Shown here: positions 84 through 64,000 of the stretch, piece after piece
Position numbering within the stretch: position 1 is the first letter of the stretch
How the letters are laid out: every line of letters starts with the position of its first letter
Virus record (IMG/VR): IMGVR_UViG_3300021502_000037
Span: 1,047-65,046 of that record
Source: a virus
Lineage: Duplodnaviria; Caudoviricetes
Reading direction: 5' to 3' (one strand)
Length of the DNA: 64,000 bases
Notes under the pieces: model-generated
What the model was told of the DNA's origin: nothing
Database searches by the model: none
The model's input: only the letters and a program-made list of their open reading frames with translations
Position numbers and translations under genes: made by a program

Positions 84-2813
84 ATGACTATATCAATAAC
101 CAAAAATTTCTGGAATAGTACAACAGACCAATATAATACAATAGCAAAAATTGTTTTTACATCTCCAAATATAGATAGCCCTGCTGTTGCTGGAACTAGA
201 TCACATATTTTACCGGGTTCTGATTTTATAGGGTCATGGTTTGAAGCCGTTGATCTAATGCATAGAATATCTTGGAATGAAGATCCCCCAGATAAACAGG
301 CAACATATTTTGCCAAATTAAGTATGAATCAAGATGAGGCTTTTAATTTTAATAGTGATATGACTGTGAGTGTTGTTTCTAATTATCCTGTGATATTTTC
401 TGGCGGGCAAGTAGTAAACTATAATAAAGATGAATATGGTATTGTAGATACCGCAGTTTCTGGAACTATAACTACATTTGGCGGGCAACTATTAGGGTTT
501 ATAAAAGAGAATGTAAAAAAGGGCGGAGCAATTCATGGGGATATCAATGTTATTTATAGAACAGCACCAAATTCAGTGGATATTTATACTTACGACGTTA
601 TAAAAAATGTTTGGGACACTTATTTAGAAGCACCAGATAATTTTGGTGACTACCCTTCGATATTAAAAATAGGAACAAAAATATATTGTATAAAAGGTGA
701 TAGTAGTAATGTATTCTGGGAGTATGATACTGTCAGTTTTATATGGACTAATCTATTTAATCTACCGGTTATCGCAGATAATTATACATTCATAGGAAGT
801 TTTGATGATGAGAATAAAATATATTTTTTAAAAGCTGGAAATTCAATTTTATATGAGTATAATGTATTGAGTAATACGTGGGATGGTGGTATATCTATTA
901 CACTTTCAGGGCACGATGAGGTTTGGTATGGACCTTCTTTTTGGAAGTATAATGATAAATACTATATGTGGGTTGCAGCTAGAGATTCTAGTACTGTAGG
1001 TTTAAGGTGTGTAGAAATTGATACTTCTACAGGGGTTGCTACTGATAAGGGTTTATATAAAGATATATCGGCAGCAGATATAACTAATTTTATATCTTTT
1101 GGTAAGGACACAACATGTAGTGGACTATATGGGGCTGGTATTTCTACTTTAAGTCATTATAATTTAAATGGTACTGATAATGAGTTTTTATACTCTTTTC
1201 ATGATGTTACACAAAGTGGTATTGATATAATTAAAGAAGGAGATTATTCATCTGCTGATTGTTTTATAAATCCACAAGATCTTTTTTTTCCCACGCAAGA
1301 AAATATAAATCCAGAGGTAGCTTCTATTACTACTATTAGTGGTGGGAATGGTTATTATTTTTTAGATAGGGAAAATAATTTTATAGACACATATTTATGT
1401 TTATATAATTTAACTGCCTCAGGGACATCCACTAATTGTTCTACTTCTTATAGTTTATTATCTGGAGAATCTTCAGACACAGCTTATACTAATTTAACAG
1501 AATTGAATGATAGTATATATTTATTAGAAGGTGTTTATTCAAATTCATTATGGAAATATAATATTGGTACAGAAGTTTGGTCTGTAGATGGTTGTATAGC
1601 AATCGATGAATTTAATACAGATCAAAAATATACTGTAAAAGAACATACATTTTTATTAAGCGATGATACAGACTTATATTTATTGAAAGGTGCGGGTTAT
1701 AACTCATTTTATAAATATACTACAGAATCTGGTGTTTGGTCACAATTAGATAGTATGGCTGGTATCTTATCAGAGTATGCTCAAGGAGTTTATGTATCGT
1801 CTAATGATAGTATTTATGTTATACAAGGGAAAGATTCTTCAGCACTGTGGAAATATGATGTGTCTGGTGGTTCGTGGAGTATCATGACTGGATCTCCAAG
1901 TAGTTTCACTTCTAATTGTGGTTTTCACTACCCAGTATGGGGAGGGGATTACATTTATGCAACTCGCGGTAGAGGATATGGTCATTTTTGGAAATATAAA
2001 ATCTCTACAAATGAATGGGTACCAAATACCGGGTTACTATTATATGATTCTTTAATCACAGGATTAACGTCTAGAGGAACTTCTGATAGTAATGGTAAAA
2101 TATATAGTATAGATACTATTAGTGTTAGTGAGTACAGGGTAGCTACTGATTTATGGTTACGTATAGATGGGTATATTTCATATAATGATCTTAATAAGAA
2201 TTTTGTTTCTAATGACACCGGTTCTGATTTATATGTGGCAGGAGGTTCTGGTTTAAGATCATATTCTGTTGATAACTTAGCTATTATATCAGAACAAACT
2301 AATTATGATTTGACTTTTAGCGAGGTTGTTGGTACTAGTATAGTTTCAGTTACTAGCTATTTTAATACCTGGGAAAATAATTTGAGTAATGATGATATTT
2401 GGGCTGGGGCAAAAAATACTATTATATTCGAAGCCACAAATGGAGAAGCATATGCCTGTAAACTAACAGCTTGGGATGATGAGACACATGCTACTACTGC
2501 TAATCAAATTTTAAACGGAGATCATTATAGAGTTACTTGTGCAGCTTATAAATCAATAGGGGGATCAAAAACAGAACCATTATCAGGAAATCATACAGAC
2601 ACCATAGTGCATCCAGTAGGCGTGGATACAGTATTAAAAGGTGACGATTCTTATTATGGTACTTTTACATTTATACACATACCTAACGGAGGGCCAACAG
2701 GGGATGAACATGGTGAGTATTTAATATTCCTTCCAAGATTGGCCGGTATTGATGATACATTTTCTGCTGGAAATTATGATTTTGTAACTACATTCCATTA
2801 TAGCTATACTTAA
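84..2813 (+). CDS. Kelch-like beta-propeller putative virion/tail protein
   Basis: Repeated IY-x-x-G...(F/L)W(K/E)Y(D/N)...W blades. ATG at 84 follows the SD-like GAGGGA (ORF track starts at 51). Confidence 0.6.
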   Translation: MTISITKNFWNSTTDQYNTIAKIVFTSPNIDSPAVAGTRSHILPGSDFIGSWFEAVDLMHRISWNEDPPDKQATYFAKLSMNQDEAFNFNSDMTVSVVSNYPVIFSGGQVVNYNKDEYGIVDTAVSGTITTFGGQLLGFIKENVKKGGAIHGDINVIYRTAPNSVDIYTYDVIKNVWDTYLEAPDNFGDYPSILKIGTKIYCIKGDSSNVFWEYDTVSFIWTNLFNLPVIADNYTFIGSFDDENKIYFLKAGNSILYEYNVLSNTWDGGISITLSGHDEVWYGPSFWKYNDKYYMWVAARDSSTVGLRCVEIDTSTGVATDKGLYKDISAADITNFISFGKDTTCSGLYGAGISTLSHYNLNGTDNEFLYSFHDVTQSGIDIIKEGDYSSADCFINPQDLFFPTQENINPEVASITTISGGNGYYFLDRENNFIDTYLCLYNLTASGTSTNCSTSYSLLSGESSDTAYTNLTELNDSIYLLEGVYSNSLWKYNIGTEVWSVDGCIAIDEFNTDQKYTVKEHTFLLSDDTDLYLLKGAGYNSFYKYTTESGVWSQLDSMAGILSEYAQGVYVSSNDSIYVIQGKDSSALWKYDVSGGSWSIMTGSPSSFTSNCGFHYPVWGGDYIYATRGRGYGHFWKYKISTNEWVPNTGLLLYDSLITGLTSRGTSDSNGKIYSIDTISVSEYRVATDLWLRIDGYISYNDLNKNFVSNDTGSDLYVAGGSGLRSYSVDNLAIISEQTNYDLTFSEVVGTSIVSVTSYFNTWENNLSNDDIWAGAKNTIIFEATNGEAYACKLTAWDDETHATTANQILNGDHYRVTCAAYKSIGGSKTEPLSGNHTDTIVHPVGVDTVLKGDDSYYGTFTFIHIPNGGPTGDEHGEYLIFLPRLAGIDDTFSAGNYDFVTTFHYSYT

Positions 2814-2858: not shown

Positions 2859-4265
2859 ATGGCAGAATATAAAAATAATATACACGTTAATTTTGATGTA
2901 AATGATAGTATAGATGCTATTACATATTTACCATCTGTTTTTAGAATACAAAGTTCTGAAAGTGGTATATTTAATATAAACAATGATTTATATATTAGTT
3001 TAGTTGATGCTATTGATACCTATGATATTCAGGTTGAAGCAACTCTAAGTGGTGTATTAAAAAGTTCAAATTTTAACCATATAGTAGATATTTCTATGGA
3101 TGATCTATTTATGGATACACCAGTGCCTATAGAAGTAAATTTTTGTACTTCTATCACTACTAATAAAGTTATTTCATATGTATCTACATTTTTAATCTAT
3201 AGAGACATATTTGGTACAGAAGATATAGATGTTTCTTCATATATAGGTACTAGTTATGATGCTTCTTTTACCGATATACAAAATATATTTCATATTTATA
3301 TAGACGCAGTAGATGTTAAAACTGATGTACCTGTAGATTTATATATATCTAATAATAAATATTATAATTACCCTATGGATCAGTACTCTACGATATTGGA
3401 TTTAGTTGGTATAGGTATGGATTTTGAACAGGGGCCTGGTAAAGTAGCTAATACACAGTTGGATGCTTTTTCTTCAGGGTTAATTTTGAATGGAGAGGTT
3501 TTATACGATTCTTATTGTACTGAGAGTGGGGTTGTTGGTGGGTGTAGATCGGATATTACTACTATATCTGGTGGACAAACTTATATTCAAATGGACGGAT
3601 TTTCGTCTTTAGTTAATATTAGTGGGTCGGTTAATTGTGACATACGTACATGGAGTTTAGAATTTGGTGATTTTTTTGCTGATCATTGGAGTGTTACTAC
3701 TGCGTCAGGGTCAGCATGGATAGATATAATAGATACATTTTGTAGTATTGATACAGGTAACTGTTATTTTTCTGTTGATGGGGAAAGGGTTGAATCTACA
3801 TTTGTTACTATAGATGGTGGATACAGGATGTGCTATGACCCAATAGATAATTTTAGTACTCTATTAGAATTTCAAATGGATGTACATGCACAGAATTTTT
3901 ATGGTGATATATTAGAGAATTCTTATAAATTTTTATATGGTGCCGATATTAGATTGCATGAAGTAGTTACTTTTGTTAATAAAAAATATATTCCAATATG
4001 GGCAAAAGTAAACAATGTAATGGATTGTCCTGAATTTTCTACAGTTGCTTATAAATTTGAAACAAAAGACTACTATGGTAAAGATTTAGGGGCGTATATA
4101 AATCCAGTAATAGGAGTTGATTTACCTGTGATTTTATATCCACAAAATACATTCTTTTTTTATGGTCGAACTTACCGTATAGGAATTTCTGGGTTAAAAG
4201 ATTTTTCTGGGAATGTAAAGTCTGATTACATATATACCTTTACTATAGAGAACCCTTTAGAATGA
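2859..4265 (+). CDS. Putative structural protein, beta-rich with Ig-like C-terminus
   Basis: 468-aa acidic, beta-rich ORF. The C-terminal Y-x-I-x-ISGLKDFSGN...YTFT pattern resembles bacterial Ig-like domains. Confidence 0.45.
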   Translation: MAEYKNNIHVNFDVNDSIDAITYLPSVFRIQSSESGIFNINNDLYISLVDAIDTYDIQVEATLSGVLKSSNFNHIVDISMDDLFMDTPVPIEVNFCTSITTNKVISYVSTFLIYRDIFGTEDIDVSSYIGTSYDASFTDIQNIFHIYIDAVDVKTDVPVDLYISNNKYYNYPMDQYSTILDLVGIGMDFEQGPGKVANTQLDAFSSGLILNGEVLYDSYCTESGVVGGCRSDITTISGGQTYIQMDGFSSLVNISGSVNCDIRTWSLEFGDFFADHWSVTTASGSAWIDIIDTFCSIDTGNCYFSVDGERVESTFVTIDGGYRMCYDPIDNFSTLLEFQMDVHAQNFYGDILENSYKFLYGADIRLHEVVTFVNKKYIPIWAKVNNVMDCPEFSTVAYKFETKDYYGKDLGAYINPVIGVDLPVILYPQNTFFFYGRTYRIGISGLKDFSGNVKSDYIYTFTIENPLE

Positions 4266-4960
4266 AAAAATTAACATACGAATATATAAAAGAAAATATA
4301 GAGTTGGAAGGTTACATACTATTAACTAACTATTATATTAATAGCAAGCATAAGTTAAGATGTATTTGTAGACGAGGTCATTTATATAATGTTACTTGGT
4401 CAGATTGGAAGTCAAAAAAAAGATGCCCTAAGTGTTATCATATTGATAGGGCAAAAAGATTACGTTTAGATTTTAATGGTATAAAAAAAGAATTTAGAAA
4501 AGAAGGGTGTTATATACAATCTACAGAATATATTAATGTAGATCAAAAATTAGATTATATTTGTAAACGTGGACATAAGCACAGTATAAGTTGGCACAAT
4601 TGGAAAAGTGGTTGGAGGTGTCCTTATTGTCACCATGAAGATTTGTCAAAAAAAATGTCTGGTATAAATCATCCAAACTGGAAAGGTGGTATTTCAAAAA
4701 AATCCTACTGTCAAGATTGGACAAATGATTTAAAAGAACTTGTTAAAGAACGAGATGGTTTTAAATGTTTAAATCCATGTTGTTTGTCAAAAACCCCGAA
4801 GGATTTAACGGTTCACCATATAGATTATAACAAAAAATCTTGCGGGGCGGAAAATCTTATCACTGTTTGCAGATCTTGTAATTCTAGAGCTAATACAAAT
4901 AGAAATTGGCACGAAGCGTGGTACAAAGCGATTTTAAATAAAAGATATAATTATAAATAG
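4262..4960 (+). CDS. HNH homing endonuclease with Zn-ribbon repeats
   Basis: Two C-x-x-GH...CPxC repeats and a C-terminal VHHIDYNK...NLITVCRSCN HNH motif. ATGA overlap with the upstream stop. Confidence 0.85.
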   Translation: MKKLTYEYIKENIELEGYILLTNYYINSKHKLRCICRRGHLYNVTWSDWKSKKRCPKCYHIDRAKRLRLDFNGIKKEFRKEGCYIQSTEYINVDQKLDYICKRGHKHSISWHNWKSGWRCPYCHHEDLSKKMSGINHPNWKGGISKKSYCQDWTNDLKELVKERDGFKCLNPCCLSKTPKDLTVHHIDYNKKSCGAENLITVCRSCNSRANTNRNWHEAWYKAILNKRYNYK

Positions 4961-28539: not shown

Positions 28540-28820
28540 TTAATATGGCTATTAGAAACGCACTAATCATAGAACGGGATGACCTTTTGTGCGATCATTT
28601 ATTAATTGCACGTAGAGTTTATGGAAGTAAAATTAAATATAGAAAACATGCTTTTATATCTTTAGATAGTTTTGGAATAAAATTTAAATTTACGATGGAA
28701 ATAAATTAATATGGCTATTAGAAACGCACTAATCATAGAACGGGATGACCTTTTGTGCGATCATTTATTAATTGCACGTAGAGTTTATGGAAGTAAAATT
28801 AAATATAGAAAACATGCTTT
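28540..28820 (+). repeat. 115-bp exact direct repeat (28540-28654 and 28706-28820)
   Basis: Both copies read ttaatatggctattagaaacg...aaacatgcttt, offset by 166 bp. Confidence 0.95.
28545..28709 (+). CDS. 54-aa small protein, paralogue of the next gene (below the ORF-track cutoff)
   Basis: SD AAGGAG, then MAIRNALIIERDDLLCDHLLIARRVYGSKIKYRKHAFISLDSFGIKFKFTMEIN*. Confidence 0.55.
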   Translation: MAIRNALIIERDDLLCDHLLIARRVYGSKIKYRKHAFISLDSFGIKFKFTMEIN

Positions 28821-37724: not shown

Positions 37725-39033
37725 GTGTCTAAAAAATTAACAATAAAAGAGTTTATTAAAAAAGCTGAAAGTGTACATAATTTTCGATACGATTATTCAA
37801 AATCAATATATGTGAATAATCGTATCAAAATTGAAATTATATGTCCAAAGCATGGCAGTTTTTGGCAAAATCCAAATGGTCATATGAGAGGAAGTTGGTG
37901 TAAAAAATGCTCTAATAGCTATAGAAGTAAAAAAAGAAGAACGCCATTGCGAAGATTTATAGAAAGAGCAAATCAAATTCATAATAGTAAGTATGACTAT
38001 TCGTTGGTAAAATATGTAAACAATCCCCACTAAAGTAAAAATTATATGCCCTATTCATGGTATGTTTGAGCAAAAACCAAATAATCATTTACAAGGGCGT
38101 AATTGTTTGAGGTGGGGATATGAAATAAACAGTCAAAATTTTAGAAAGACACTTAAGCAATTTATTTTTGATGCTATATTAGTTCATGGTGATAAATACA
38201 ATTATTTAATGGTTGAATATATAAATGATGGAACAAAAGTTAAAATTATATGTCCAAAACACGGAGAATTTTACCAAACACCAACCCATCATCTTGGAGG
38301 CCAAGGTTGTGCTAAATGTTCCCACCATGTTTCAAAAGGTGAGACAGAGGTATCAAATTGGTTAAAATCCTTTAATTTAAATGTAGAAATAAGTAATAGA
38401 ACTATTATTAAACCAAAAGAAATTGATATTTATTTACCAGATTTCAAACTTGGTATAGAGTATAATGGAACATATTGGCATACAGAAAAATACCGAAAAA
38501 ATATAAATTATCACAGAGATAAAACATTTAAAGCAAGAGAAGCTGGTGTTCATTTGATGCAGTTTTGGGACATTGAGTGGGATGAAAAACAAGATATAGT
38601 AAAGTCAATTATTCTTAGAAAAATTGGTAAAAGTAAATATAATTATTACGCTAAAAATCTTATGGTAAAAGAAGTAAAACCAAGTGAATCGAGAGTCTTT
38701 TGTGAAGTTAATAGTATTCATGGGTTTCGTGATGGTAGAGTTCACAACGGCCTTTACTTTGGTGATGAGTTAATGGTATTAATTGTTGTGGGTAATGGTG
38801 GAGAAATGATTCGATTTGTAGTAAAAAATTACTGTTCTGTAAAAAATAGTTTTTCTAAATTATTAAAGTATTCTGATATAAAATATTCTTTTGTTGATCA
38901 AAGAGTGTTTAATGGTTTAGAGTATTATAAAAATGGTTTCAAACTTTTATATATCACGAAACCAAATTATTTTTATATAAACAAGCATTATAAATTATAT
39001 GATTGTGGGTATATGAAATTTAAAAAAAAGTAA
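37725..39033 (+). pseudogene. Frameshifted Zn-ribbon-repeat/Vsr-like homing endonuclease with degenerate Hef-like C-terminus
   Basis: Repeats F...A..VH..(K/R)YDYS...Y.N...K..IICP.HG.F.Q continue across a +1 shift at about 38025 (TKVKIICPIHGMFEQ in the next frame). Contains EIDIYLP...IEYNG.YWH. Confidence 0.75.
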
Positions 39034-39201
39034 CTTGACAAAATTATTTATATGATTATATTTATATAAGGTTAATAACATTATAAATCACCGGCGCAGT
39101 TTTTGGCGTCCGGTGTATTTGATGGCTATTAAAAATAAAATTTGACAATATTAAAATAAGTATTATGTTAATATATAAAAGAAGTAAGCAAAGGTAGTTC
39201 A
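39031..39201 (+). repeat. Dual-promoter/hairpin cassette, copy 1 (copy 2 at 50028-50201)
   Basis: TTGACA at 39035 and 39142, GC-rich hairpin at 39085-39120, ends in agcaaaggtagttca. Confidence 0.85.
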
Positions 39202-44805: not shown

Positions 44806-45660
44806 TTGGGTAAAAAATGGACTATAGAGATTGTTAGAGAGGGATTTGAAGCTGATGGGTATGAATTGTTGACTATTGAGTATATTAATAATCATCAAAA
44901 ATTGGATTATATTTGCCCGAAGCAACGTAAAGGGCAGGTTACTTGGCATCATTGGCTGATGGGTAGTAGGTGTCCTTGTTGTTCTGGGATTCTTAAAAAA
45001 ACTATAGATTTTATCCGCTCCGAATTTGAAAAAGAAGGCTACAAACTTTTGACTAAAAAATATATAAATAATTCACAAAAATTGGATTATATTTGTCCAA
45101 AAGGACATAGATATTATATAACATGGGGAAATTGGCAGCAGGGCAGACGTTGTCCTTGTTTTGCTGGTAGACCGCCAATTAATATAGATTCAGTTAAATT
45201 TGAATTTAATAAAAGAGGGTATGAATTATTGTCAAAAAAATATATTAATGCCCGTTCAAATTTAAAATTTAAATGTAAACGGGGACACATTGGTAAAATG
45301 TCTTGGGACAATTTTAGTCATGGATCAATTTGTTTAAAATGTGCAATAGAAAATAATACTGGTCCAGGCCACCCAAGTTGGAAAGGTGGTATTTCAAAAG
45401 AACCTTATTGTAAAGATTGGGATAAAGATTTGAAAGAATTTGTAAAAGAACGTGATGGTTACAAATGTATGAACCCCGACTGTTGGGAAAAAGACAATGT
45501 GTTGCATGTTCATCATATTAATTATAATAAAAAGTCTTGCGGGGCTGAAAATCTTACTACAGTTTGCAGGTCATGCAATGGAAGAGCAAATAAAGATAGA
45601 GAATGGCACGAGGCGTGGTATAAAGCAATTTTACATAAAAGATACAATTACATTTATTAA
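44806..45660 (+). CDS. HNH homing endonuclease with Zn-ribbon repeats
   Basis: Three F.kEGY.LL..Y.N...L.Y.C..GH repeats and the same HNH tail as the 4262 ORF. Confidence 0.85.
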   Translation: MGKKWTIEIVREGFEADGYELLTIEYINNHQKLDYICPKQRKGQVTWHHWLMGSRCPCCSGILKKTIDFIRSEFEKEGYKLLTKKYINNSQKLDYICPKGHRYYITWGNWQQGRRCPCFAGRPPINIDSVKFEFNKRGYELLSKKYINARSNLKFKCKRGHIGKMSWDNFSHGSICLKCAIENNTGPGHPSWKGGISKEPYCKDWDKDLKEFVKERDGYKCMNPDCWEKDNVLHVHHINYNKKSCGAENLTTVCRSCNGRANKDREWHEAWYKAILHKRYNYIY

Positions 45661-45681: not shown

Positions 45682-48138
45682 ATGAAAAAAATTAAAAGAA
45701 GTAAAAAACAAAACAAAATTAAAGTTGTAGCGTATTGTGATAGCCCCTCAGTTGCAACAGGGTTTGGAACAGTATCTAGAAATATTTTATCTGGTCTTTA
45801 CGATACAGGTAGGTATGATATTGATGTGCTTGGTATTAATTATTGGGGAGATCCTCATGAATTTCCGTTTAGAATTTTCCCAACAGGAGTTAATTCACAA
45901 CGTGACCCCTATGGGAGAGAAAAAATTTGTGGAATGATACCACAAATGCAGTATGATATTTTATTTTTCCTACAGGATACATTTATTCTCTCATTTTTGC
46001 CAGAATTAATTAAAAAACTCGAATATGAAAAAAAGAATGATTTTAGATCTATTTGTTATTTCCCCGTAGACGGTCGACCAAAAAATCAATGGATCCATAA
46101 TATAAATGCTGTCCATTATCCTGTAGCATATACGCAGTTTGGGCATGATCAAGCTAAAGAAGTTTGTCCTGAATATAAAGGATCTGATATTATAGTTCAT
46201 GGTGTAAATACAAAAGAATATTTTGTTTTACCAGAAAAAGATAGTCTTGCTTTTAGGTCTCAATATTTTGGTAGGCACTCAGAAAAATTTATTATAACCA
46301 ATTTAAATAGAAATCAACAAAGAAAAGATATACCTAGAACAATTCAAGCTTTTGCTGAATTTAGAAAAGAAGTTAAAGATAGTATTTTATATTTACACAT
46401 GGCAAGAAACGATCAAGGATGGGATTTAGTTGAAGTATGTAAAGCATATGGATTAGATATTAGTAATGATGTAATTTTTCCTGAGAATTTCGGTCCAAAT
46501 CAAGGTTATCCGAGAGAGGTTGTGAACATGATTTATAATGCAAGTGATTGTGTTGTCAGCACTACCTTGGGCGAGGGTTTTGGATTTTGTGTACATCCTA
46601 AAACCAATGTGTATACAGAAGAAGGTGTAAAATATATTGAAAATTTAACAATTACTGATAATGTTTTGTCCTCTGATGGTAGTTATAATAGTGTTGAGGC
46701 TATTATGTCTAAAAATCATGATGGAAATTTGTATGAAATAACTACTTGGATGTCAAATATACCAATAAAAGCATCTCCAGAACATGGTTTCTTGGTTAAG
46801 GGATCTAAAACAGAGTATAATTGGAAGAAGGCTTCCGAGTTAAATATAAAGGACATACTAGTTTTTCCTAAAGGCAGTGTTTGTAGTTCTAATGTTATAG
46901 ATATACTTGAGTTAATAAAACCAAATTTGTCTGTTGCTCAGTTGAATAATCTTATAGAGACTAAAAATCATTTTAAAATCCAGTCAAATTTTACAAAAGA
47001 AAGTAAATTTATACCGAAAAAGTTAAAAATAACTGAAGATTTAATGTATTTATTTGGGTTATATTTGGCTGAAGGACATGTTGGTGCTTCTAAAATGGAT
47101 AGTATAGGATTTAGTTTTCATAAAAAAGAGGTAAATTTACTTACATTTGTGGAAAATTTCATGGCAGATACTTTTGGGTTATCTTGTACATATTTAGATC
47201 ATACAAGTAGAGGGAGTGATTATAAAGGACAAACCATAGTATTTTACTCTAGTGTTTTAGCTCAACTATTTAAAACTTTATTTGGTTTGGGAGCTAGGAA
47301 TAAATATATACATAACATATTATTAACACAGCCAAATATAATGTTACAGAAATTATTATATGGTGAATTTTTAGGTGATGGTAGTTATGGTGAGTCTACT
47401 TATGAATTTTCTATATCGACTACTTCTAAACATATAGCTTATGCGTTAAGATTAATAATGGCAAAAATGGGTATTATTTCTTCAGTGAGAACAAGTAGGG
47501 TTGAATATAAAGTAAATGTTAGTGGTTCATCTAAAAGAAAGCTTCTTGATTTATTTAATATTTATTATGATACAAATAGACCTTGGGAAAAAGGTGTTGA
47601 TAGGGCTACTCAGAATGATGATTATTTATTATTACCTATTAAAGATATAACCATAACTAAGTATGCTGGGAAATTAGTAGATATACAGGTTGCAAATACT
47701 AATAATTTTGTGGCAGAAAATGTGGTGGTACATAATTCGTGGATCGAAGCAATGGCAACAAAAACTCCAGTAGTTATACCAGACAATACTGCAATGACAG
47801 AATTTGTTAATGATACTAATGGTTATTTAGTTAAAAGCGGAACAAATTCAAGTTTATTCACAGTAATTCCCAATGATAATGAAATTATACGACCGCTGGT
47901 AGATGTAGAAGATTTGGTAGATAAACTAAAACAAATTTATTATGATAGAGATGAAGCAAAATGCCGTGCTGAAACAGCTTATAAATGGGTAACGGAAGAG
48001 ATGGATTGGAAAAAAAATATTGTTCCACAATGGATAAAAGTATTTGATAAAGTTTATGCTGATTTGAAAAGCGGTAAACCAAGTAATCTTTTAGTTGATG
48101 GTAAGGCTGATAATATAATTAATGCGGAATCGTTTTAA
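45682..48138 (+). CDS. GT4-family glycosyltransferase containing an intein
   Basis: TGFG, HGVNT, NRNQQRKD and an E-X7-E motif (EGFGF|SWIE) split by the intein. Confidence 0.88.
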   Translation: MKKIKRSKKQNKIKVVAYCDSPSVATGFGTVSRNILSGLYDTGRYDIDVLGINYWGDPHEFPFRIFPTGVNSQRDPYGREKICGMIPQMQYDILFFLQDTFILSFLPELIKKLEYEKKNDFRSICYFPVDGRPKNQWIHNINAVHYPVAYTQFGHDQAKEVCPEYKGSDIIVHGVNTKEYFVLPEKDSLAFRSQYFGRHSEKFIITNLNRNQQRKDIPRTIQAFAEFRKEVKDSILYLHMARNDQGWDLVEVCKAYGLDISNDVIFPENFGPNQGYPREVVNMIYNASDCVVSTTLGEGFGFCVHPKTNVYTEEGVKYIENLTITDNVLSSDGSYNSVEAIMSKNHDGNLYEITTWMSNIPIKASPEHGFLVKGSKTEYNWKKASELNIKDILVFPKGSVCSSNVIDILELIKPNLSVAQLNNLIETKNHFKIQSNFTKESKFIPKKLKITEDLMYLFGLYLAEGHVGASKMDSIGFSFHKKEVNLLTFVENFMADTFGLSCTYLDHTSRGSDYKGQTIVFYSSVLAQLFKTLFGLGARNKYIHNILLTQPNIMLQKLLYGEFLGDGSYGESTYEFSISTTSKHIAYALRLIMAKMGIISSVRTSRVEYKVNVSGSSKRKLLDLFNIYYDTNRPWEKGVDRATQNDDYLLLPIKDITITKYAGKLVDIQVANTNNFVAENVVVHNSWIEAMATKTPVVIPDNTAMTEFVNDTNGYLVKSGTNSSLFTVIPNDNEIIRPLVDVEDLVDKLKQIYYDRDEAKCRAETAYKWVTEEMDWKKNIVPQWIKVFDKVYADLKSGKPSNLLVDGKADNIINAESF
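46588..47736 (+). mobile_element. Intein with LAGLIDADG endonuclease (383 aa)
   Basis: Starts CVHP, ends VVHN|S. LAGLIDADG-like blocks LFGLYLAEG and GEFLGDG. Confidence 0.92.
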
Positions 48139-48148
48139 GGAATTTTAT

Positions 48149-48409
48149 ATTTAAATAATAAGAAAACCACTAAGTCTTTAGCTTAGTGGTTGAATTATTA
48201 CAAATTAAAACTTGACAAAAGCTTTTACACGTATTATATTATAATTAACATTAATCCTGCTATAAATGAAAACCAAGTTTATAGTAGGATTAATACATTT
48301 TTAAACATATTAACCGCAGGGACTGCGGGGTTAGCCTACCAAATTTAGATGGTAACAAACATCTAATTACTTAGGAAACCCGTAAATCTTTAGCTTAGGG
48401 GTAGTTCAT
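48149..48409 (+). mobile_element. Non-autonomous IS200/IS605-type element (261 bp; left end, promoter, omegaRNA-like 3' part, right end)
   Basis: Target TTAT at 48145-48148. Left end AAAA + CCACTAAG-TCTTTAG-CTTAGTGG hairpin. tnpB-end-like ACCGCAGGGACTGCGGGGTTAGCC. Right end GAAA + hairpin + TAGTTCAT. Confidence 0.8.
48212..48240 (+). promoter_or_regulatory. sigma70-like promoter inside the non-autonomous element
   Basis: TTGACA-N17-TATATT. Confidence 0.7.
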
Positions 48410-49979
48410 GGATGTAAAAATATTAGAAGAAGCAGGTTATAAACACGCATTATATGGTATATCTTTGAGTTATAATAAAGATATAGAAAATATGGAGAAA
48501 GTTTCTAAATCTTTGTGTAAATTAGATGGTGGCCATAATAAATTTTTAGAAAGTATTGTGGTATGGTTAGAAATAAATGCTGCTAGATATTGGTGGCAAG
48601 AATTTGATACATATAGAGTTGGTATCACCAAACAATCTGAGTGTTTTGATGATAAAACTGAAATCTTAACTTTAGATGGTTGGAAATATTTTAAAAATTT
48701 AAAAAATGAAGATTTATTTTGTACGATGAATATAAAAAATAGAAATATAGAATATCAGAAAGCAACTAATTATATAGAGAATGATTTTAATGGGGAGGTA
48801 CTTTCTATTAATGGTAAATCAATAGATTTAATTGTAACTAAAAATCATAATATGGTAATAAAATGTAGACGAAGTGAAAATTTGAGAATTATACCCGCTG
48901 ATAAATTTACACATTCACATGGTATTCCAAAGAAAGCAATATGGAAGGGTAAAGAGGTGTCAGAGTTTATACTACCTATGGTACAGAAAGAAACGAAATA
49001 CTCTACATTTTACCCAGAAAAAAAAATTAATATGGATTTATGGTTAAAATTTTTTGGTTTTTGGTTGGCAGAAGGATGTGTTTTTTGTAATCGTAATAAA
49101 AAAAATTACATATCATCCGCTTGTCAAGTTGAGGATAGTAAATATATACCTGAAATAGATGCAATTTTTGATGAATTACCCTTTAAGGTTTATAGATATG
49201 TTGAGAAGAGAAAAGATAAGAAATCAATAATTGTATGGAAAATTTCTAATAAACAGTTATATTTTTATTTATTAGAATATAAAGGAGCATTGAATAAATA
49301 TATAAATAAAGATTTACTTACTTTATCTAAAAGACAATTAAACATTCTTGAAAAATGGTTAATGGTTGGAGATGGTTGTGTTACTTTTAAGCACTATATT
49401 TACATTTCAATTAGTAAAAAATTAATTGATACTGTTCAAGAACTATGGTTAAAATTAGGGTATTCCTCTTCTATTAGAATTCATCGTGAAGCTCAAAATA
49501 ATTGTAAACGTGTTTATTCAATTGCAAGACATAGAACGTCTTATGCATATGCTTTGAAAAATAATATAAAAAAAGTAAATTATAAAGGTAAAATTTATTG
49601 TGTTGAGGTTCCTAATCATATTATTTTAGCTCGTAGAAATGGAAAGATAGTATGGACTGGTAATTCAACAATACATACACTTTTAAAAAGTAGATTAACT
49701 CAAAATAATTTTGAATCTGATATACCAGAAAAATTTTTAAATTATTTAAATACAATTATTACTAATTATCATAATAGTAAGAATAAAAATAAAGCTGAAT
49801 TTACAAAGGAAATAAAAAATATCCTTCCAGAAGGTTTTTTACAGCGAAGAATTGTGTGCACAAATTATAAAGTTTTAAAAAACATGATTAATCAAAGAAA
49901 GAATCATACTTTAGGTGGTTGGAAAATGTTTATAAATCATTTAAAAAATAATTTAGAACATTCAGATTTAATATTTTAA
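48408..49979 (+). CDS. thyX: ThyX-like flavin-dependent thymidylate synthase homologue containing an intein
   Basis: GGHNKFLE, RYWWQEFDTYR, SE|STIH, LPEGF.Q.R....NYK.L.N...QRK.H...W. Spliced product about 182 aa. Confidence 0.7.
   Translation: MDVKILEEAGYKHALYGISLSYNKDIENMEKVSKSLCKLDGGHNKFLESIVVWLEINAARYWWQEFDTYRVGITKQSECFDDKTEILTLDGWKYFKNLKNEDLFCTMNIKNRNIEYQKATNYIENDFNGEVLSINGKSIDLIVTKNHNMVIKCRRSENLRIIPADKFTHSHGIPKKAIWKGKEVSEFILPMVQKETKYSTFYPEKKINMDLWLKFFGFWLAEGCVFCNRNKKNYISSACQVEDSKYIPEIDAIFDELPFKVYRYVEKRKDKKSIIVWKISNKQLYFYLLEYKGALNKYINKDLLTLSKRQLNILEKWLMVGDGCVTFKHYIYISISKKLIDTVQELWLKLGYSSSIRIHREAQNNCKRVYSIARHRTSYAYALKNNIKKVNYKGKIYCVEVPNHIILARRNGKIVWTGNSTIHTLLKSRLTQNNFESDIPEKFLNYLNTIITNYHNSKNKNKAEFTKEIKNILPEGFLQRRIVCTNYKVLKNMINQRKNHTLGGWKMFINHLKNNLEHSDLIF
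48642..49664 (+). mobile_element. Intein with LAGLIDADG endonuclease (341 aa)
   Basis: Starts CFDD, ends WTGN|S. Blocks FFGFWLAEG and LMVGDG. Confidence 0.92.
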
Positions 49980-50025
49980 TTTAATTAGCGGTTGATTAAA
50001 TAACCAATCGCTAATTAAATTAAAA
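49974..50025. terminator. Long inverted repeat (21-bp stem, 10-nt loop) after thyX; terminator or processing hairpin
   Basis: ttttaatttaattagcggttg ... caatcgctaattaaattaaaa. Confidence 0.6.
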
Positions 50026-50027
50026 AA

Positions 50028-50201
50028 TAACTTGACAAAATTATTTAGATGATTATATTTATAGAAGGTTAATAACACCCTAAATCACCGGCGCCGGCTG
50101 TTTGGCGTCCGGTGTATTTGATTGTTATGAAAAATAAAACTTGACATTAATAAACTAAGCATTATATTATTAGATAAGGTTAATTAAGCAAAGGTAGTTC
50201 A
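50028..50201 (+). repeat. Dual-promoter/hairpin cassette, copy 2
   Basis: TTGACA at 50032 and 50141, hairpin at 50082-50119, continues into the tRNA-like RNA. Confidence 0.85.
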
Positions 50202-50261
50202 ATGTAGAATATTCGGTGACCAGCCGGAAGATGCAGGTGCAATTCCTGCCCTTTTGCTCCA
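50188..50261 (+). tRNA. Non-canonical tRNA-Gly(ACC)-like RNA
   Basis: Cloverleaf GCAAAGG/CTTTTGC, U73, encoded CCA. Anticodon arm TTCGG-TGACCAG-CCGGA; T arm GCAGG-TGCAATT-CCTGC. Confidence 0.7.
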
Positions 50262-50277
50262 AATAAAATAAAATAAA

Positions 50278-50964
50278 ATGATTAAACATAAAGATTTAAT
50301 GGGCAAAACATTCGGGAGATTAAAAGTTATTGGAAAGGAAGGCCCAGCAAAAAATAGAATAATGCAATGGTTATGTGAATGTTCGTGTGGCAATATATTA
50401 ATAGTAAGATCCAATCATCTTATACATGGGCATACAAGAAGTTGTGGATGTTTACAGAAAGAAAAAGTTACGGATGTTTTTATTCCAGATCTTATTGGAA
50501 AAAAATTTGGTAGACTTACAGTGCTGAGTTTAAGTAAAAAAAGAAAAAATAGAGCTGCAGTATGGAGATGTAAATGTGATTGTGGGAATTATACAGAAGT
50601 AATAACATCATGTCTTATAATTGGACATACAAAATCGTGTGGCTGTCTTCAAACAGAATCTTGTTCTGGTGATAATAATTTTAATTGGAGAGATGACACC
50701 TCAAAAGGAATTTATTGTCGAGACTGGACTAATGATTTAAAAGATTGTGTTAAAGAACGTGATGAATATAAATGTTTAAATCCTGATTGTTGGGGTAAAG
50801 ATAAGACATTATCTGTTCATCATATTAATTATAATAAAAAATCTTGTGGTCTAGAAAATCTTATTACAGTTTGCAGATCTTGTAATACTAGAGCAAATAC
50901 AGATAGAGAATGGCACGAGGCTTGGTATAAAGCAATTTTATATAGTAGATATGGTTATATTTAA
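50278..50964 (+). CDS. HNH homing endonuclease with FGRL.V...W.C.C.CG repeats
   Basis: Two DL.GK.FGRL.V...W.C.C.CG...SCGCLQ repeats plus the same HNH tail as 4262 and 44806. Confidence 0.85.
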   Translation: MIKHKDLMGKTFGRLKVIGKEGPAKNRIMQWLCECSCGNILIVRSNHLIHGHTRSCGCLQKEKVTDVFIPDLIGKKFGRLTVLSLSKKRKNRAAVWRCKCDCGNYTEVITSCLIIGHTKSCGCLQTESCSGDNNFNWRDDTSKGIYCRDWTNDLKDCVKERDEYKCLNPDCWGKDKTLSVHHINYNKKSCGLENLITVCRSCNTRANTDREWHEAWYKAILYSRYGYI

Positions 50965-51084: not shown

Positions 51085-51120
51085 AATAATTAATTTTAAA
51101 TGTTAAGGAAAAATTATGAA

Positions 51121-51600
51121 CAGCTTTAGAGCCGCAATCCCAGAAAGGTCTTCGGGGTTAGGCTCTTGACAAATGAAATTTAATACTTATTATTAATTTA
51201 AAGGGAAAATTTATGATAACAAGAGAATTAAAATTACAATTACAATTAAAAACTAAGCAGAAAAACTTATGCAATTTAATAGGTATTTCTCAATTAAGAC
51301 AATTTATTTCCTACAAGAGTGACATACACGGTAGAAAATGTGTTTTAGTTGATTCAAAATATACCACCATGACTTGTTCAATTTGTGGAGTCAAAACTGG
51401 TCCTACAAGTTTAAACGGGCTTGCTGTAAGAAATTGGGAGTGTAGTGCTTGTGGAGCACAACATGACCGCGACATTAATGCGGCTAATGTAATTCTCAAT
51501 TTTGGGCTGGGATACAGCCTCGATAACGCTGCAACCCACGCCTGTAAAGGGCCGGGGATTTGTAAACTGGAATCGTCGGGCGGTGCCCGATGAGTATCAA
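51121..51600 (+). mobile_element. IS200/IS605-family element (480 bp) with internally deleted tnpB, inserted 3' of ATGAA
   Basis: Left end has CAAT at +15..18 before a hairpin. Right end GAAT + CGTCGGGC-GGT-GCCCGATG hairpin + AGTATCAA. No target duplication. Confidence 0.88.
51213..51593 (+). pseudogene. tnpB: Internally deleted TnpB
   Basis: N-terminal MITRELKL fused to the C-terminal YK...VD..YTT.TCSICG...W.CSACG..HDRDINAA. RuvC-I and RuvC-II are missing. Confidence 0.85.
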
Positions 51601-53773
51601 AATAAAAGGTATAAAATATGTGGGGCCACTAACAGATGGTTCTGGTTATGGAAAAGCTTGTAGAGAAAATATAAAAGCACTATTATCTGTTGGAGTAAAT
51701 TTAACATTATCTCCTATATCTTTTGAAACAATTAGACCAGATTTAGGTGGTGATGGTGAAATATTAAAAAAATTAATAAATAAATCTATAGATTATAATA
51801 TAGTTATTATTCATACAACACCTGAATTTTGGGAAAAATATAGAGAAGATGGTAAATTAAATTTGGGATACACTATATGGGAAACTACAAAATTACATCC
51901 GGCGTGGAAAGATTATATTAATAATAATGTTGAAAAAGTTTTGGTAGGTTGTGAATGGAATGTAGATGTCTTTAAAGAAAGCGGAATAACATTACCAATA
52001 GAAGTTATTCCACATCCAATAAATATACCAGATGAAAATGTAAAAGCATTCAATATAAATGGTGTTTCTGATGATACTTTTACATTCTACAGTATTTTTC
52101 AATGGTGTTACGATGATAAAACTAGGGTATTAACTGAAGACGGATTTAAATATTTTAAAGATTTAACATATGATGATAAGTTGGCTACATTAAATTTAAA
52201 TACGGAGGAATTAGAATATCATAAACCAGATAATCTTGTAAGTTTCGATAGAAAAGATAAAATGATATCTATACAAGGTAATTTATTTGACGTTTGTGTT
52301 AATCCAGAACATAAAATGGTTGTTAGAAATGCGGACAGTAGTGATTGGTTTTTAAAACCTTTAAAAGATATGTTAAGTAGTAATAAAAAAAATGAATTAA
52401 TTGTTAGCGATAAATATAGAGCAAAGAAAAATTGTAAATGGTTTGGAGAAGAATGTGAAAACTTTTATTTACCTAAATATAAGCATGGTAAAGATGAAAA
52501 ATTAGATGAATTTACCATAATTTTAATGGACGACATGTTGGAATTTATAGGTTGGTATATTTCAGAAGGTTCCACCTATAAGGGTGAAAGTGGTTATGTT
52601 ACTACAATTACACAATCTAAAAGTGCTGTATATATAAAAGAAATTACAGAATGTATAAAACGTATGGGATTTACTCCTTTTAAAAGGGATAAGGATATTA
52701 GATTTAATTCTAAAGACATGTATTATTTGTTAAAAAATTTAGGTACATCTCAATATAAATTTATTTTTAATTGGGCAAAAAAATTAAGTTCAAGACAAAT
52801 AATTATTCTATTAACATCATTATTTAAAGGCGATGGTAGTTTATATGAGAATGGGGATTGGGTAAAGTATACTACAACGTCCAAAAAATTAGCAGAAGAT
52901 GTTCAGGAATGTTTGTTAAAAGTAGGAATGTCTGGAGCAATTTCTATATCAGATCCAACAAAAAAGAAACCTGGAACAATAGATGGAAGAGAAATTAGAG
53001 GAAAATTACTACAATATACTGTATCTGTGAATAGAAAATTTAATGAGCCGAGTATGTATTATGCAAATGTAAAAGAAATTAATTATGATGGTAAAATATA
53101 TTGTGCGGAAATAAAAAATCATACTATGTTAGTTGAACGTAATGGTAAAATATTATTTTCTGGGAATACAGAAAGGAAAAATCCTGTAGCAGCTATAAAA
53201 GCCTATTGGTATGCTTTTCAAAATGATGAGAATGTAGCATTAGTATTAAAAACATATAGAAGTGACTATTCTGAACAAGAAAAAGAAGCAATTAGAAGGA
53301 CACTTAATAGGTTAAAAGATATTATGCCTATGGATACTTATCCAAAAATATATTTAATTCCAGATTTATTGACAGATAATGAAATAAATGGTTTACATAA
53401 ACGTGGGGATTGTTATTTAAGTACAGACCGTGGTGAAGGTTTTGGTTTAAGTGGTGCTGCTGCTGGTTCTTTTGGCAATCCAATAATGGTAACAGGTTTT
53501 GGCGGGGCTTTAGAATATGCTAAAGAAGATAATAGTTATTTAATTGATTATCAGTTAACACCGGTTTTCGGACAGCCATGGAGTCCGTGGTATAAGGGTA
53601 CTCAACTATGGGCGGAAACAAGTGTATTACACACATCTCAGTTATTAAGACATGTTTATGAAAATCAAGATGAAGCAAAACAAAAAGGTTTAAAGTTACA
53701 AAAATTTATAAAAGATAATTTATCTTATGAAACTATAGGTAATAAAATAATTAAAGAAATTGAGATGATATAG
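51590..53773 (+). CDS. GT4-family glycosyltransferase containing an intein
   Basis: SGYG, YTIWET, FQW|TERKN, RGEGFGL motifs. The start MSI is supplied by the IS right end. Confidence 0.88.
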   Translation: MSIKIKGIKYVGPLTDGSGYGKACRENIKALLSVGVNLTLSPISFETIRPDLGGDGEILKKLINKSIDYNIVIIHTTPEFWEKYREDGKLNLGYTIWETTKLHPAWKDYINNNVEKVLVGCEWNVDVFKESGITLPIEVIPHPINIPDENVKAFNINGVSDDTFTFYSIFQWCYDDKTRVLTEDGFKYFKDLTYDDKLATLNLNTEELEYHKPDNLVSFDRKDKMISIQGNLFDVCVNPEHKMVVRNADSSDWFLKPLKDMLSSNKKNELIVSDKYRAKKNCKWFGEECENFYLPKYKHGKDEKLDEFTIILMDDMLEFIGWYISEGSTYKGESGYVTTITQSKSAVYIKEITECIKRMGFTPFKRDKDIRFNSKDMYYLLKNLGTSQYKFIFNWAKKLSSRQIIILLTSLFKGDGSLYENGDWVKYTTTSKKLAEDVQECLLKVGMSGAISISDPTKKKPGTIDGREIRGKLLQYTVSVNRKFNEPSMYYANVKEINYDGKIYCAEIKNHTMLVERNGKILFSGNTERKNPVAAIKAYWYAFQNDENVALVLKTYRSDYSEQEKEAIRRTLNRLKDIMPMDTYPKIYLIPDLLTDNEINGLHKRGDCYLSTDRGEGFGLSGAAAGSFGNPIMVTGFGGALEYAKEDNSYLIDYQLTPVFGQPWSPWYKGTQLWAETSVLHTSQLLRHVYENQDEAKQKGLKLQKFIKDNLSYETIGNKIIKEIEMI
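52106..53167 (+). mobile_element. Intein with LAGLIDADG endonuclease (354 aa)
   Basis: Starts CYDD, ends FSGN|T. Blocks FIGWYISEG and LFKGDG. Confidence 0.92.
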
Positions 53774-63879: not shown

Positions 63880-64000
63880 CAGCTTTAGAGCCGCAATCCC
63901 AGAAGGGTCTTCGGGGTTAGGCTCTTGACAAATGAAATTTAATGTTTATTATTAATTTAAAAGGAAAATTTATGATAACAAGAGAACTAAAATTACAATT
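63880..64000 (+). mobile_element. Third copy (left end) of the ATGAA-targeting IS200/IS605 element; tnpB begins at 63972 and runs off the window
   Basis: Near-identical to 51121-51241. Preceded by ATGAA whose TGA is the DUF362 stop codon. Confidence 0.88.

Follow-up and report, generated by a model that had tools for sequence, protein, structure and literature searches.

An IS200/IS605-type element without an open reading frame, inserted in and rebuilding the start codon of a gene in a large phage-like virus

The 64,000-nucleotide (nt) stretch of viral DNA analysed here (positions 1,047 to 65,046 of IMG/VR record IMGVR_UViG_3300021502_000037; hereafter, the window) represents nearly the whole of a 65-kb virus record, for which CheckV gives a completeness of ~22%. 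The window has a G+C content of 30.6%, is 96% coding, and carries all its long open reading frames (ORFs) on the plus strand. A glycosyltransferase gene occupies positions 45682 to 48138, with its TAA stop codon at 48136 to 48138, and is followed by an ORF of 523 amino acids at positions 48408 to 49979; both genes are intein-bearing, the intein of the 523-amino-acid ORF being of the LAGLIDADG type. The sequence element described in this work sits between these two genes. It is preceded by the left flank GGAATTTTAT (48139 to 48148), begins at position 48149, and has the 3' end ...GGGGTAGTTCAT at position 48409, where the next base, the G at 48410, completes the ATG start codon of the downstream ORF (Table 1). 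An earlier examination that used the letters of the window and a list of its ORFs and nothing else (the sequence-only reading) had described this stretch as an IS200/IS605 element inserted into the start codon of a thyX gene, and its base-level statements on the stop codon, the flank, the insert-like stretch, and the G at 48410 were all correct on rechecking.

Alleles that lack the element were found in several relatives of the virus, and their boundaries agree with the TTAT|G site that had been predicted from the sequence. The metagenome contig L034 encodes the C-terminal part of the glycosyltransferase (83% amino acid identity) and the downstream protein (87% identity over the first 78 residues), and its flanking DNA is 83 to 89% identical to the window in blastn. 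Window segments 47737 to 48140 and 48408 to 48640 correspond to positions 1806 to 2209 and 2221 to 2453 of L034, so the similarity stops at 48140 and restarts at 48408, with 11 bases in L034 where the window has 267. These limits are the ends of the blastn segments; the MAFFT alignment misplaced the long gap. Further alleles came from contigs of four public runs (X8, X9, X10, and X11), which were placed on positions 47300 to 50100 at 90% likeness and therefore represent alleles of relatives. One X11 contig (depth, 62.9; shorter side, 44 bases) joins 48140 to 48408 with 9 other bases in between, and two variants in X8 join 48141 to 48408 with 8 bases in between, the shorter side here being just 26 bases. 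A distant relative, L003 (~52% amino acid identity), has a 75-nt spacer ahead of the homologous ATG. In all, there are five independent short-spacer alleles, namely, those of L034 and L003, one X11 contig, and the two X8 variants. The filled form is present in all four runs (X10, 47885 to 48385; X9, 48058 to 48382; X8, 47965 to 48336; X11, 48160 to 48336), and filled and empty alleles coexist in X8 and X11.

In the empty alleles of L034, X8, and X11, TTAT stands immediately before GGAT (the L034 junction reads ..AATTAT before GGAT), as expected for an insertion that follows TTAT and splits the AT|G of the start codon. The final two bases of the TTAT at 48145 to 48148 are thus the former AT of the original start codon. 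Since AT is found at both junctions, the boundary has a 2-nt ambiguity; we set it at 48149 to 48409 because the right ends of the transposon family described below stop at ...TCAT and diverge right after it. There is no target duplication: the junctions share the 2-nt AT only, and the empty site is scarless. As a separate observation, the fifth base before the cut is A or G, not T, in the four near empty alleles (AATTAT in three and AGTTAT in one), the filled allele reads TTTTAT at the same place, and the distant L003 likewise has T. Should the TnpB nuclease of this clade require TTTAT, the near empty alleles could be uncuttable, in what is a small sample of related alleles.

The two ends of the element are spanned by a 42-nt direct repeat (79% identity), each copy of which forms a hairpin with the loop TCTTTAG. 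The two hairpins are similar to each other and have direct, not inverted, orientation. Within the 64 kb, the 12-mer TCTTTAGCTTAG has exact matches at the two element ends only, and the element region folds far better than its shuffled versions (z = -7.1). All 8 of 8 pairs are formed in the left-end hairpin (-14.7 kcal/mol), and the TTGAATT that follows it is typical of the left ends of the family. The right-end hairpin forms 6 pairs, compared to 8 pairs in 17 of 18 other viral right ends and 7 pairs in the remaining one.

The arrangement of these ends follows the rule known from IS608 of Helicobacter pylori. According to the available part of the source (PMC3201880), the cut at the left end of IS608 follows a TTAC located 19 nt 5' of the hairpin, and that at the right end follows a TCAA located 10 nt 3' of the hairpin; the cleavage sites are read by the four bases located 5' of each hairpin foot, and the right-end guide uses its first base to pair with C-3 and its second to pair with T-4. 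Applied to the window element, the rule predicts TTAT from the guide AAAA at the left end and TCAT from the guide GAAA at the right end, and both are observed. For the pairing of the fourth position, we assumed the one seen in TTAC/AAAG. Across the relatives, the rule is obeyed by 36 of 48 right ends, compared to a mean of 13 and a maximum of 22 in 2,000 trials with the guides shuffled among the copies. These 36 right ends comprise GAAA/TCAT in 16 copies, GAAG/TCAC in 13, CAAG/TGAC in 4, AAAA/TTAT in 2, and GAAT/TCAA in 1. At the left ends (n = 22), AAAA is found with TTAT 15 to 20 nt upstream in 12 of 15 cases, AGAA with CTAT in 3 of 3, and AAAT with TTAA in 2 of 3, non-predicted tetranucleotides being nearly absent. 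The left boundary of L016 and the left ends of L076, L064, and L068, where the predicted tetranucleotide does not occur at 15 to 20 nt, were scored as misses. The proposal that the element obeys the IS608 guide rule at both ends is thus borne out, both by the fit of AAAA/TTAT and GAAA/TCAT and by their covariation across the relatives.

A pattern covering both hairpin copies has matches in 13 other viral-contig stretches. In these viral relatives, the hairpin is followed by a tail of 7 to 8 nt (AGTTCAT, AGTTCAC, AATTGAC, etc.), after which the sequences diverge. Four of the records carry 2 to 9 matches each to TnpB (Pfam ID PF07282), with the right-end hairpin located ~100 to 150 nt downstream of the TnpB zinc-ribbon domain, and six such TnpB-linked right ends, all from full-length elements, were collected. 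The TnpB-linked left ends show an A-rich stretch, a hairpin whose loop is identical or almost identical, and then (A/T)TGAATT. The left end of the window element aligns with eight other left ends of the family, and a TYTAT motif is found 16 to 19 nt before the left hairpin in the window, in the TnpB-carrying relatives, and in a 400-nt ORF-less relative alike. The latter occupies different sites in two other viral records (96% identity over 404 nt), where the similarity begins 18 nt before the left hairpin and ends exactly at AGTTCAT. The same hairpin was also found in 24 stretches of bacterial and archaeal genomes, including those of Bacteroidales, Methanosarcina, Methanogenium, Bacillus, Clostridia, and Oceanospirillales, often as pairs of a left end and a right end merely 170 to 390 nt apart. 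A Y1-type TnpA transposase is intact in G004, a record with members of the family, where it adjoins TnpB, broken in G001, and reduced to a fragment in G003, with no match in G002. Judged by its ends, which match those of TnpB-carrying relatives, the window element is of the IS200/IS605 type and lacks an ORF, as the sequence-only reading had it, and can be assigned to a large IS605-family clade in which short ORF-less forms are common.

Several other features of this clade deserve mention. The hairpin CTAAG-TCTTTAG-CTTAG is nearly invariant in the cellular contigs L049 to L072 and is seen also in Thiomargarita and Patescibacteria. A metagenome-assembled genome of Methanogenium contains at least 4 copies of an ORF-less element of ~220 nt. 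There are also mini-elements of ~60 nt with a single hairpin, found in L031 (~863 to 925, plus strand), L079, L080, L084, and L087. They combine a left-end-type 5' side (TTAT or CTAT 17 to 19 nt upstream, guide AAAA or AGAA) with a right-end-type tail behind the shared hairpin, and in L087 and L086 the single guide AAAA fits both TTAT sites. The mini-elements may represent the family reduced to its minimum or may have arisen when the two hairpins recombined with each other.

The 3' part of the element resembles the omegaRNA-type modules of TnpB-carrying transposons. When folded individually, five TnpB-linked 3' ends and window positions 48307 to 48409 adopt the same plan with four common helices: first a stem of 6 bp closed by a 3-nt loop, next an outer stem around a hairpin, and then, after two bases, the right-end hairpin and its 7-nt tail. 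RNAalifold, run on a plain MAFFT alignment of five modules, recovered two of the helices only. A covariance model, R1, was built from two TnpB-linked modules only, with a hand-written structure and gap-free sequences. It matches positions 48314 to 48409 over all its 97 positions, with a score of 35.8 bits (E value of 2.9e-6 in 196 kb and of 1.3e-6 in a second search), and matches the left-end hairpin more weakly, with 29 bits. In the nine best R1 matches, 93% of the cells are paired, compared to 72.4 ± 2.0% in shuffles (0 of 500 reach the observed value) and at most 44.5% in slid controls; 21 of the 30 pairs show a compensatory change when counted on the model-fitted alignment. R1 also has 19, 7, 2, and 2 matches in four other viral records and none in the glycosyltransferase-syntenic relatives (0 matches in 10 loci and in 5 records), a negative result backed by a positive control. 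The full-length R1 match and the folds shared with TnpB-linked modules uphold the omegaRNA-like 3' structure that had been perceived in the sequence.

The module overlaps what appears to be the very end of a tnpB gene. Two X11 contigs reach positions 48300 and 48302 from a sequence read as ..IDRDLNAA, and the TnpB tails of the family read DRDxNAAxNI... Because these contigs and the family tails agree, we consider positions 48301 to 48348 a 3' remnant of tnpB, left by an internal deletion in a tnpB-carrying element. This 15-codon tail is the only part of a cognate TnpB found in cis.

A promoter-like site located between the left end and the tnpB remnant reads toward the right end and the downstream gene and is of the same type as the other promoter-like sites of this virus. 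TTGACA-type sites are also found shortly after the left ends of the TnpB-carrying L027 and L029, which makes it probable that this was the old tnpB promoter. X9 and X11 contigs share with the window only the promoter-bearing piece 48202 to 48250, followed by unlike sequence (loose ends at 48202, 48248, and 48250), suggesting that the promoter segment recurs elsewhere in related genomes. The rebuilt ATG is at the homologous position: tblastn alignments run from residue 1 with both L034 (87%) and L003 (53%). The element has displaced the original Shine-Dalgarno region by 261 nt, and the ATG is now preceded, at a distance of 6 nt, by the GGGG run that forms part of the 3' arm of the right-end hairpin. 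The sequence-only reading had also suggested a change in the expression of the downstream gene; the match to the promoter consensus hints that the element might have such an effect.

Table 1. Features of the ORF-less element and its immediate flanks (window coordinates)
Feature	Positions	Strand	Remarks
Original left flank TTTAT	48144-48148	+	Includes the target and left cleavage tetranucleotide TTAT (48145-48148), outside the element
Entire ORF-less IS605-family (PATE/MITE-like) element, 261 nt	48149-48409	+	Absent in L034 and in X8 and X11 contigs; ends match the family
Left-end guide tetranucleotide AAAA	48163-48166	+	Directly 5' of the hairpin foot
Left-end subterminal hairpin	48167-48189	+	8-bp arms CCACTAAG/CTTAGTGG, loop TCTTTAG, then TTGAATT
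Sigma-70-type promoter-like site TTGACA-17-TATATT	48212-48240	+	11 of 12 consensus positions; prediction
17-bp hairpin at the predicted 5' end of the transcript	48250-48294	+	Fold
tnpB 3'-end remnant, last 15 codons and stop	48301-48348	+	LNILTAGTAGLAYQI, then stop; tail of a 52-amino-acid ORF
OmegaRNA-type 3' module	48314-48409	+	Stem 1 (48314-48328), outer stem enclosing a hairpin, right-end hairpin, 7-nt tail
Right-end guide tetranucleotide GAAA	48375-48378	+	GAAA goes with TCAT in 16 copies
Right-end subterminal hairpin	48379-48401	+	6 of 8 pairs; 3' arm holds GGGG (48398-48401)
Right cleavage tetranucleotide TCAT, last bases of the element	48406-48409	+	Its AT provides the first two bases of the start codon
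Rebuilt start codon ATG	48408-48410	+	Two bases from the element, one from the flank
Putative guide of an omegaRNA read through the right end (flank)	48410-48429	+	First codons of the gene; by analogy with the architecture in the available part of PMC10055086

The name thyX that had been given to the downstream gene could not be confirmed. Its intein-free homologue, encoded at positions 3511 to 4083 of L003, has no match to any Pfam family at E values up to 1, including none to Thy1 (Pfam ID PF02511), and finds nothing below an E value of 0.66 among PDB sequences. It matches PHROG 6721, a family of unknown function. Its feature neighbours in the ESM Atlas include a cluster automatically named FAD-dependent thymidylate synthase family, with Thy1 in 14% of the members, which provides a lead only and weakly suggests a ThyX-like protein.

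The sequence-only reading had also seen in this placement a case of start-codon parasitism, convergent in two transposon families. Neither part of this claim was supported by the comparison with other copies. None of the 32 other viral right ends of the family (18 + 14) rebuilds a gene start; an AT|G is found at 2 of the 32, each time with a stop within two codons. On its plus strand, the window contains 1,009 TTAT sites; 52 of these fall between genes, and at 6 a start codon is divided as AT|G, making the start-splitting sites ~1 in 10 of the 58 non-disruptive ones. As few TTAT sites are harmless in such a densely coding genome, the placement of the element can be explained by survivorship. 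The second IS605-type family is represented by the copies at 51121 to 51600 and from 63880 to the end of the window and by one in L048 (from ~4305), all three with the left flank ATGAA (51116 to 51120 for the copy at 51121). The guides of this family, CAAT on the left and GAAT on the right, predict TGAA and the TCAA at 51597 to 51600, respectively, and the family carries only a 126-amino-acid C-terminal fragment of TnpB (PF07282; E value of 1e-20), which belongs to a different family and is the only other piece of TnpB in the window. The insertion at 51121 lies 2 nt into codon 2 of a gene whose original start would read M-K-I-K-G-I-K-Y (compare MEIKGIKY in relatives), and the in-frame ATG of the right end (51590) now serves as the start of this next gene for a glycosyltransferase, lengthening the product by two residues. 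At 63880, the insertion is found at an ATGA stop/start overlap, and the copy in L048 sits inside an ORF of another virus. This family, which inserts after ATGAA and brings its own ATG, is not a second case of insertion at TTAT|G; it is a different route to the same harmless outcome.

Taken together, these data indicate, with a probability of about 0.85, that positions 48149 to 48409 are an ORF-less derivative of a tnpB-carrying IS605-family transposon, similar to palindrome-associated transposable elements (PATEs) and miniature inverted-repeat transposable elements (MITEs), that was inserted by TnpA after TTAT. What was directly observed here includes the insertion and its boundaries, the family membership of the ends, the guide/cleavage logic, the omegaRNA-like fold, and the presence/absence polymorphism among natural populations. 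In the mechanism that we propose, an internal deletion would have left five parts of the parental transposon: the left end, the promoter-like site, the last 15 codons of tnpB, the omegaRNA-type module, and the right end. A Y1 (HUH) TnpA, presumably acting in trans by the single-strand “peel and paste” route, would have inserted the single-stranded circle, the left guide AAAA specifying a landing 3' of TTAT, and the final AT of this TTAT would by chance have begun a start codon, that of the ThyX-like gene of a large phage-like virus. The right site TCAT (guide GAAA) and the flanking G would then restore an in-frame ATG, with the gene staying translatable. The copy probably owes its survival to being among the few placements that do no harm where 96% of the genome is coding, a matter of survivorship and not of targeting, and its harmlessness may come from the rebuilt codon, from the Shine-Dalgarno-like GGGG run that it supplies, and from a promoter that reads into the gene.

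Several points weigh against this interpretation. With its two mismatches, the right-end hairpin has a predicted energy of -7.7 kcal/mol, compared to -14.4 and -17.0 kcal/mol in relatives, i.e., half the stability. This could reflect either decay or selection for an open ribosome site, and, given the weakened hairpin, this copy of the element is probably poorly mobile at best. The guide rule is broken by 12 of the 48 right ends, the rule-breakers including single-hairpin hybrids and copies ending in TGAT. Within the 65 kb of the record, ~22% of the genome, there is neither a Y1 TnpA (Pfam ID PF01797) nor an intact TnpB. The element is present in the record as a single copy, although sister ORF-less elements are multi-copy in other viral records, and it has no close full-length relative in the viral collection, where the exact 20-mer of stem 1 is found in no other record. 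The joints seen in X8 and X11 at 90% likeness are alleles of relatives and no proof of excision in this strain, and an insertion is indistinguishable from a precise excision in the empty lineages, both of which fit a mobile element. The promoter, the Shine-Dalgarno role of GGGG, and any transcript are predictions, and the counting of covariation on an alignment fitted to the model favours the structure.

The alternative that the 261 nt were never inserted and constitute a native terminator, promoter, and leader that was deleted in the relatives would account for the hairpin right after the upstream stop codon and for a promoter of the virus's own type. However, both ends belong to a transposon family seen in 13 other viral and 24 cellular stretches, the boundaries match guide-rule sites to the base, a remnant of tnpB lies inside, and there are five independent short-spacer alleles, so we consider this alternative extremely improbable. 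A more serious competitor, and one with a sizeable minority share of our confidence, is that the element is an immobile fossil that has been domesticated, i.e., that the virus retains it to serve the ThyX-like gene as promoter, leader, and ribosome-binding region. The right-end hairpin with 6 of 8 pairs (-7.7 compared to approximately -14 to -17 kcal/mol) would both cripple recognition by TnpA and leave the GGGG run accessible, the promoter-like site is like those that the virus has elsewhere, and variant copies with small indels in other populations suggest that the element has some age. Yet empty alleles with a plain spacer of 8 to 11 nt coexist with filled ones, which means that the element is not needed, and nothing points to selection beyond the presence of the element itself. 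That IS605 elements of two families have convergently evolved to replace start codons could be suspected from the three window insertions that touch gene starts (48149, 51121, and 63880) and from the in-frame ATG at the right end of the second family. This is very unlikely in view of the 0 of 32 other viral right ends that rebuild a start and of the third copy of the second family, which lies inside an ORF; moreover, four guide bases determine the target, and gene starts in an AT-rich genome often offer TTAT|G (6 of the 58 non-disruptive sites).

It is also conceivable, if unlikely, that the element is an active RNA-guided homing element. From its internal promoter, it would produce an omegaRNA of ~160 nt with the first 16 to 20 nt of the gene as the guide, and TnpB supplied in trans by a sister element would cut element-free alleles (T-TTAT as the transposon-adjacent motif [TAM]) in co-infecting viruses, whereupon recombination would copy the element in. 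A full omegaRNA-type module that fits R1 has been kept, with a promoter-like site ~160 nt upstream; in X11 contigs, the 3' end of a TnpB is connected to a module with at least 90% likeness to that of the window; filled and empty alleles occur together in X8 and X11; and PATE-like elements with omegaRNAs that need TnpB in trans, as well as a TTTAT TAM, are described in the available part of PMC10055086. On the other hand, no intact TnpB is encoded within the 65 kb of the record, the hairpin that adjoins the guide is weakened, three mismatches separate L034 from the would-be guide over its first 20 positions, and the near empty alleles, with A or G at the fifth base before the cut, are possibly uncut, or else survivors. 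A bolder form of this idea, which we regard as improbable, is that of a live protein-less “guide cassette,” in which the omegaRNA, produced from the element's own promoter, would be fused to the mRNA of the gene, TnpB from sister elements in that virus population would cut the element-free alleles of co-infecting relatives exactly at the translation start, and repair would copy the element in. If true, this would amount to an RNA-guided gene drive among large phages, in which the parasite also provides the promoter, the ribosome-binding run, and two of the three start-codon bases; the four near empty alleles with A or G at the fifth base would then be TAM-escape variants.

The window contains several other mobile or repeated sequences. 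Three LAGLIDADG-type inteins are found in three adjacent genes (46579 to 47736, 48641 to 49664, and within 51590 to 53773). The first two of these are missing from the close relative L034, and an X11 contig skips positions 48635 to 49736, which points to an intein-less allele. Three paralogous ORFs (4262 to 4960, 44806 to 45660, and 50278 to 50964) share DNA blocks that are 70 to 82% identical; the one that was examined has an HNH endonuclease domain, which makes all three probable free-standing homing endonucleases. A promoter-bearing cassette of ~187 nt is duplicated at 39014 to 39200 and 50011 to 50200 (86 to 92% identity). Its copy at 50011 continues into a tRNA gene (50190 to 50254), whereas the copy at 39014 ends with the ~14 first bases of that tRNA, immediately before the ATG of the gene at 39201, which suggests that the cassette was copied along with a piece of the tRNA. 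Two 115-nt copies (28540 to 28654 and 28706 to 28820), 100% identical and 166 nt apart, occupy the 460-nt gap between the ORFs that end at 28533 and start at 28993. At the gathering score, Rfam identifies only two tRNAs in the window; a weak match to Ref70 at positions 48308 to 48428, seen at permissive E values (31 bits against a cut-off of 115), was not used. A blastn search with positions 47600 to 48700 gave no match among deposited phage genomes.

Among the papers retrieved, judged by their titles and abstracts, we found no description of an IS605-family element that splits and rebuilds a phage start codon. The locus provides a natural example of how an IS605-family single-strand transposon can persist in a 96%-coding virus genome, and, with filled, empty, and TnpB-linked forms in the same public metagenomes, it offers a ready test case for a TnpB-in-trans drive of ORF-less omegaRNA elements in phage populations. 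The covariation of guides and cleavage sites extends the IS608 rule to a large clade with an almost invariant hairpin in viruses, bacteria, and archaea. The locus also carries a warning for genome annotation, as a gene start can be half transposon.

Among known systems, short non-coding elements derived from IS200/IS605 and bearing terminal palindromes, the PATEs, named in earlier work (PMC3119063), reportedly occur in the archaeal chromosome of Haloquadratum walsbyi. IS608 shares with the window element the subterminal hairpins at both ends in the same orientation, the insertion 3' of a flanking tetranucleotide, an AG that follows the right-end hairpin, and a 3' end formed by the element's own tetranucleotide, as well as, in the available part of PMC3201880, the crossed guide pairing c1:g2, c2:g1. 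In contrast to IS608, the window element has neither tnpA nor tnpB, its cleavage sites are TTAT and TCAT instead of TTAC and TCAA, and its spacings, counted from the CC..GG foot, are 18 nt on the left and 8 nt on the right instead of 19 and 10 nt. The hairpins of its clade also differ from those of IS608 in being perfect palindromes, with the loop TCTTTAG in most copies. Closer in kind are the ORF-less PATE-like elements of the ISGst type in Geobacillus stearothermophilus, which, in the available part of the work by Meers et al. (PMC10055086), keep both ends and the omegaRNA and need TnpA and TnpB in trans. The TTTAT TAM of TnpB2 from ISGst2, given in the same part of that paper, is identical to the left-flank pentanucleotide of the window element, a likeness at the level of the sequence motif. 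Unlike these bacterial elements, the window copy resides in a virus and not in a bacterial chromosome, splits and rebuilds a start codon, and retains the tail of tnpB and a promoter-like site that reads into the host gene. IStrons, in which a group I intron is fused to an IS605-type transposon and splicing spares the interrupted gene (PMC4227781 and PMC10690162, each in the part available), are likewise IS605-family elements that make their own insertion harmless to the interrupted gene; however, the window element is harmless through the regeneration of a start codon, and Rfam finds no intron in it. Finally, phage inteins and free-standing homing endonucleases are represented nearby by three inteins and three HNH-type ORFs, which are likewise absent from relatives, and the window element would resemble them in spreading by homing, too, if TnpB acts in trans; they are protein-based and rely on protein splicing or site-specific cutting, whereas the window element is what remains of a DNA transposon and carries an RNA-guide module. 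Thus, ORF-less PATE-like IS605 elements are of an already known kind, whereas the placement of this one is unusual, in a phage-like virus, at a rebuilt start codon, and with a promoter directed into the gene, as is the occurrence of filled, empty, and TnpB-linked forms within the same metagenomes.

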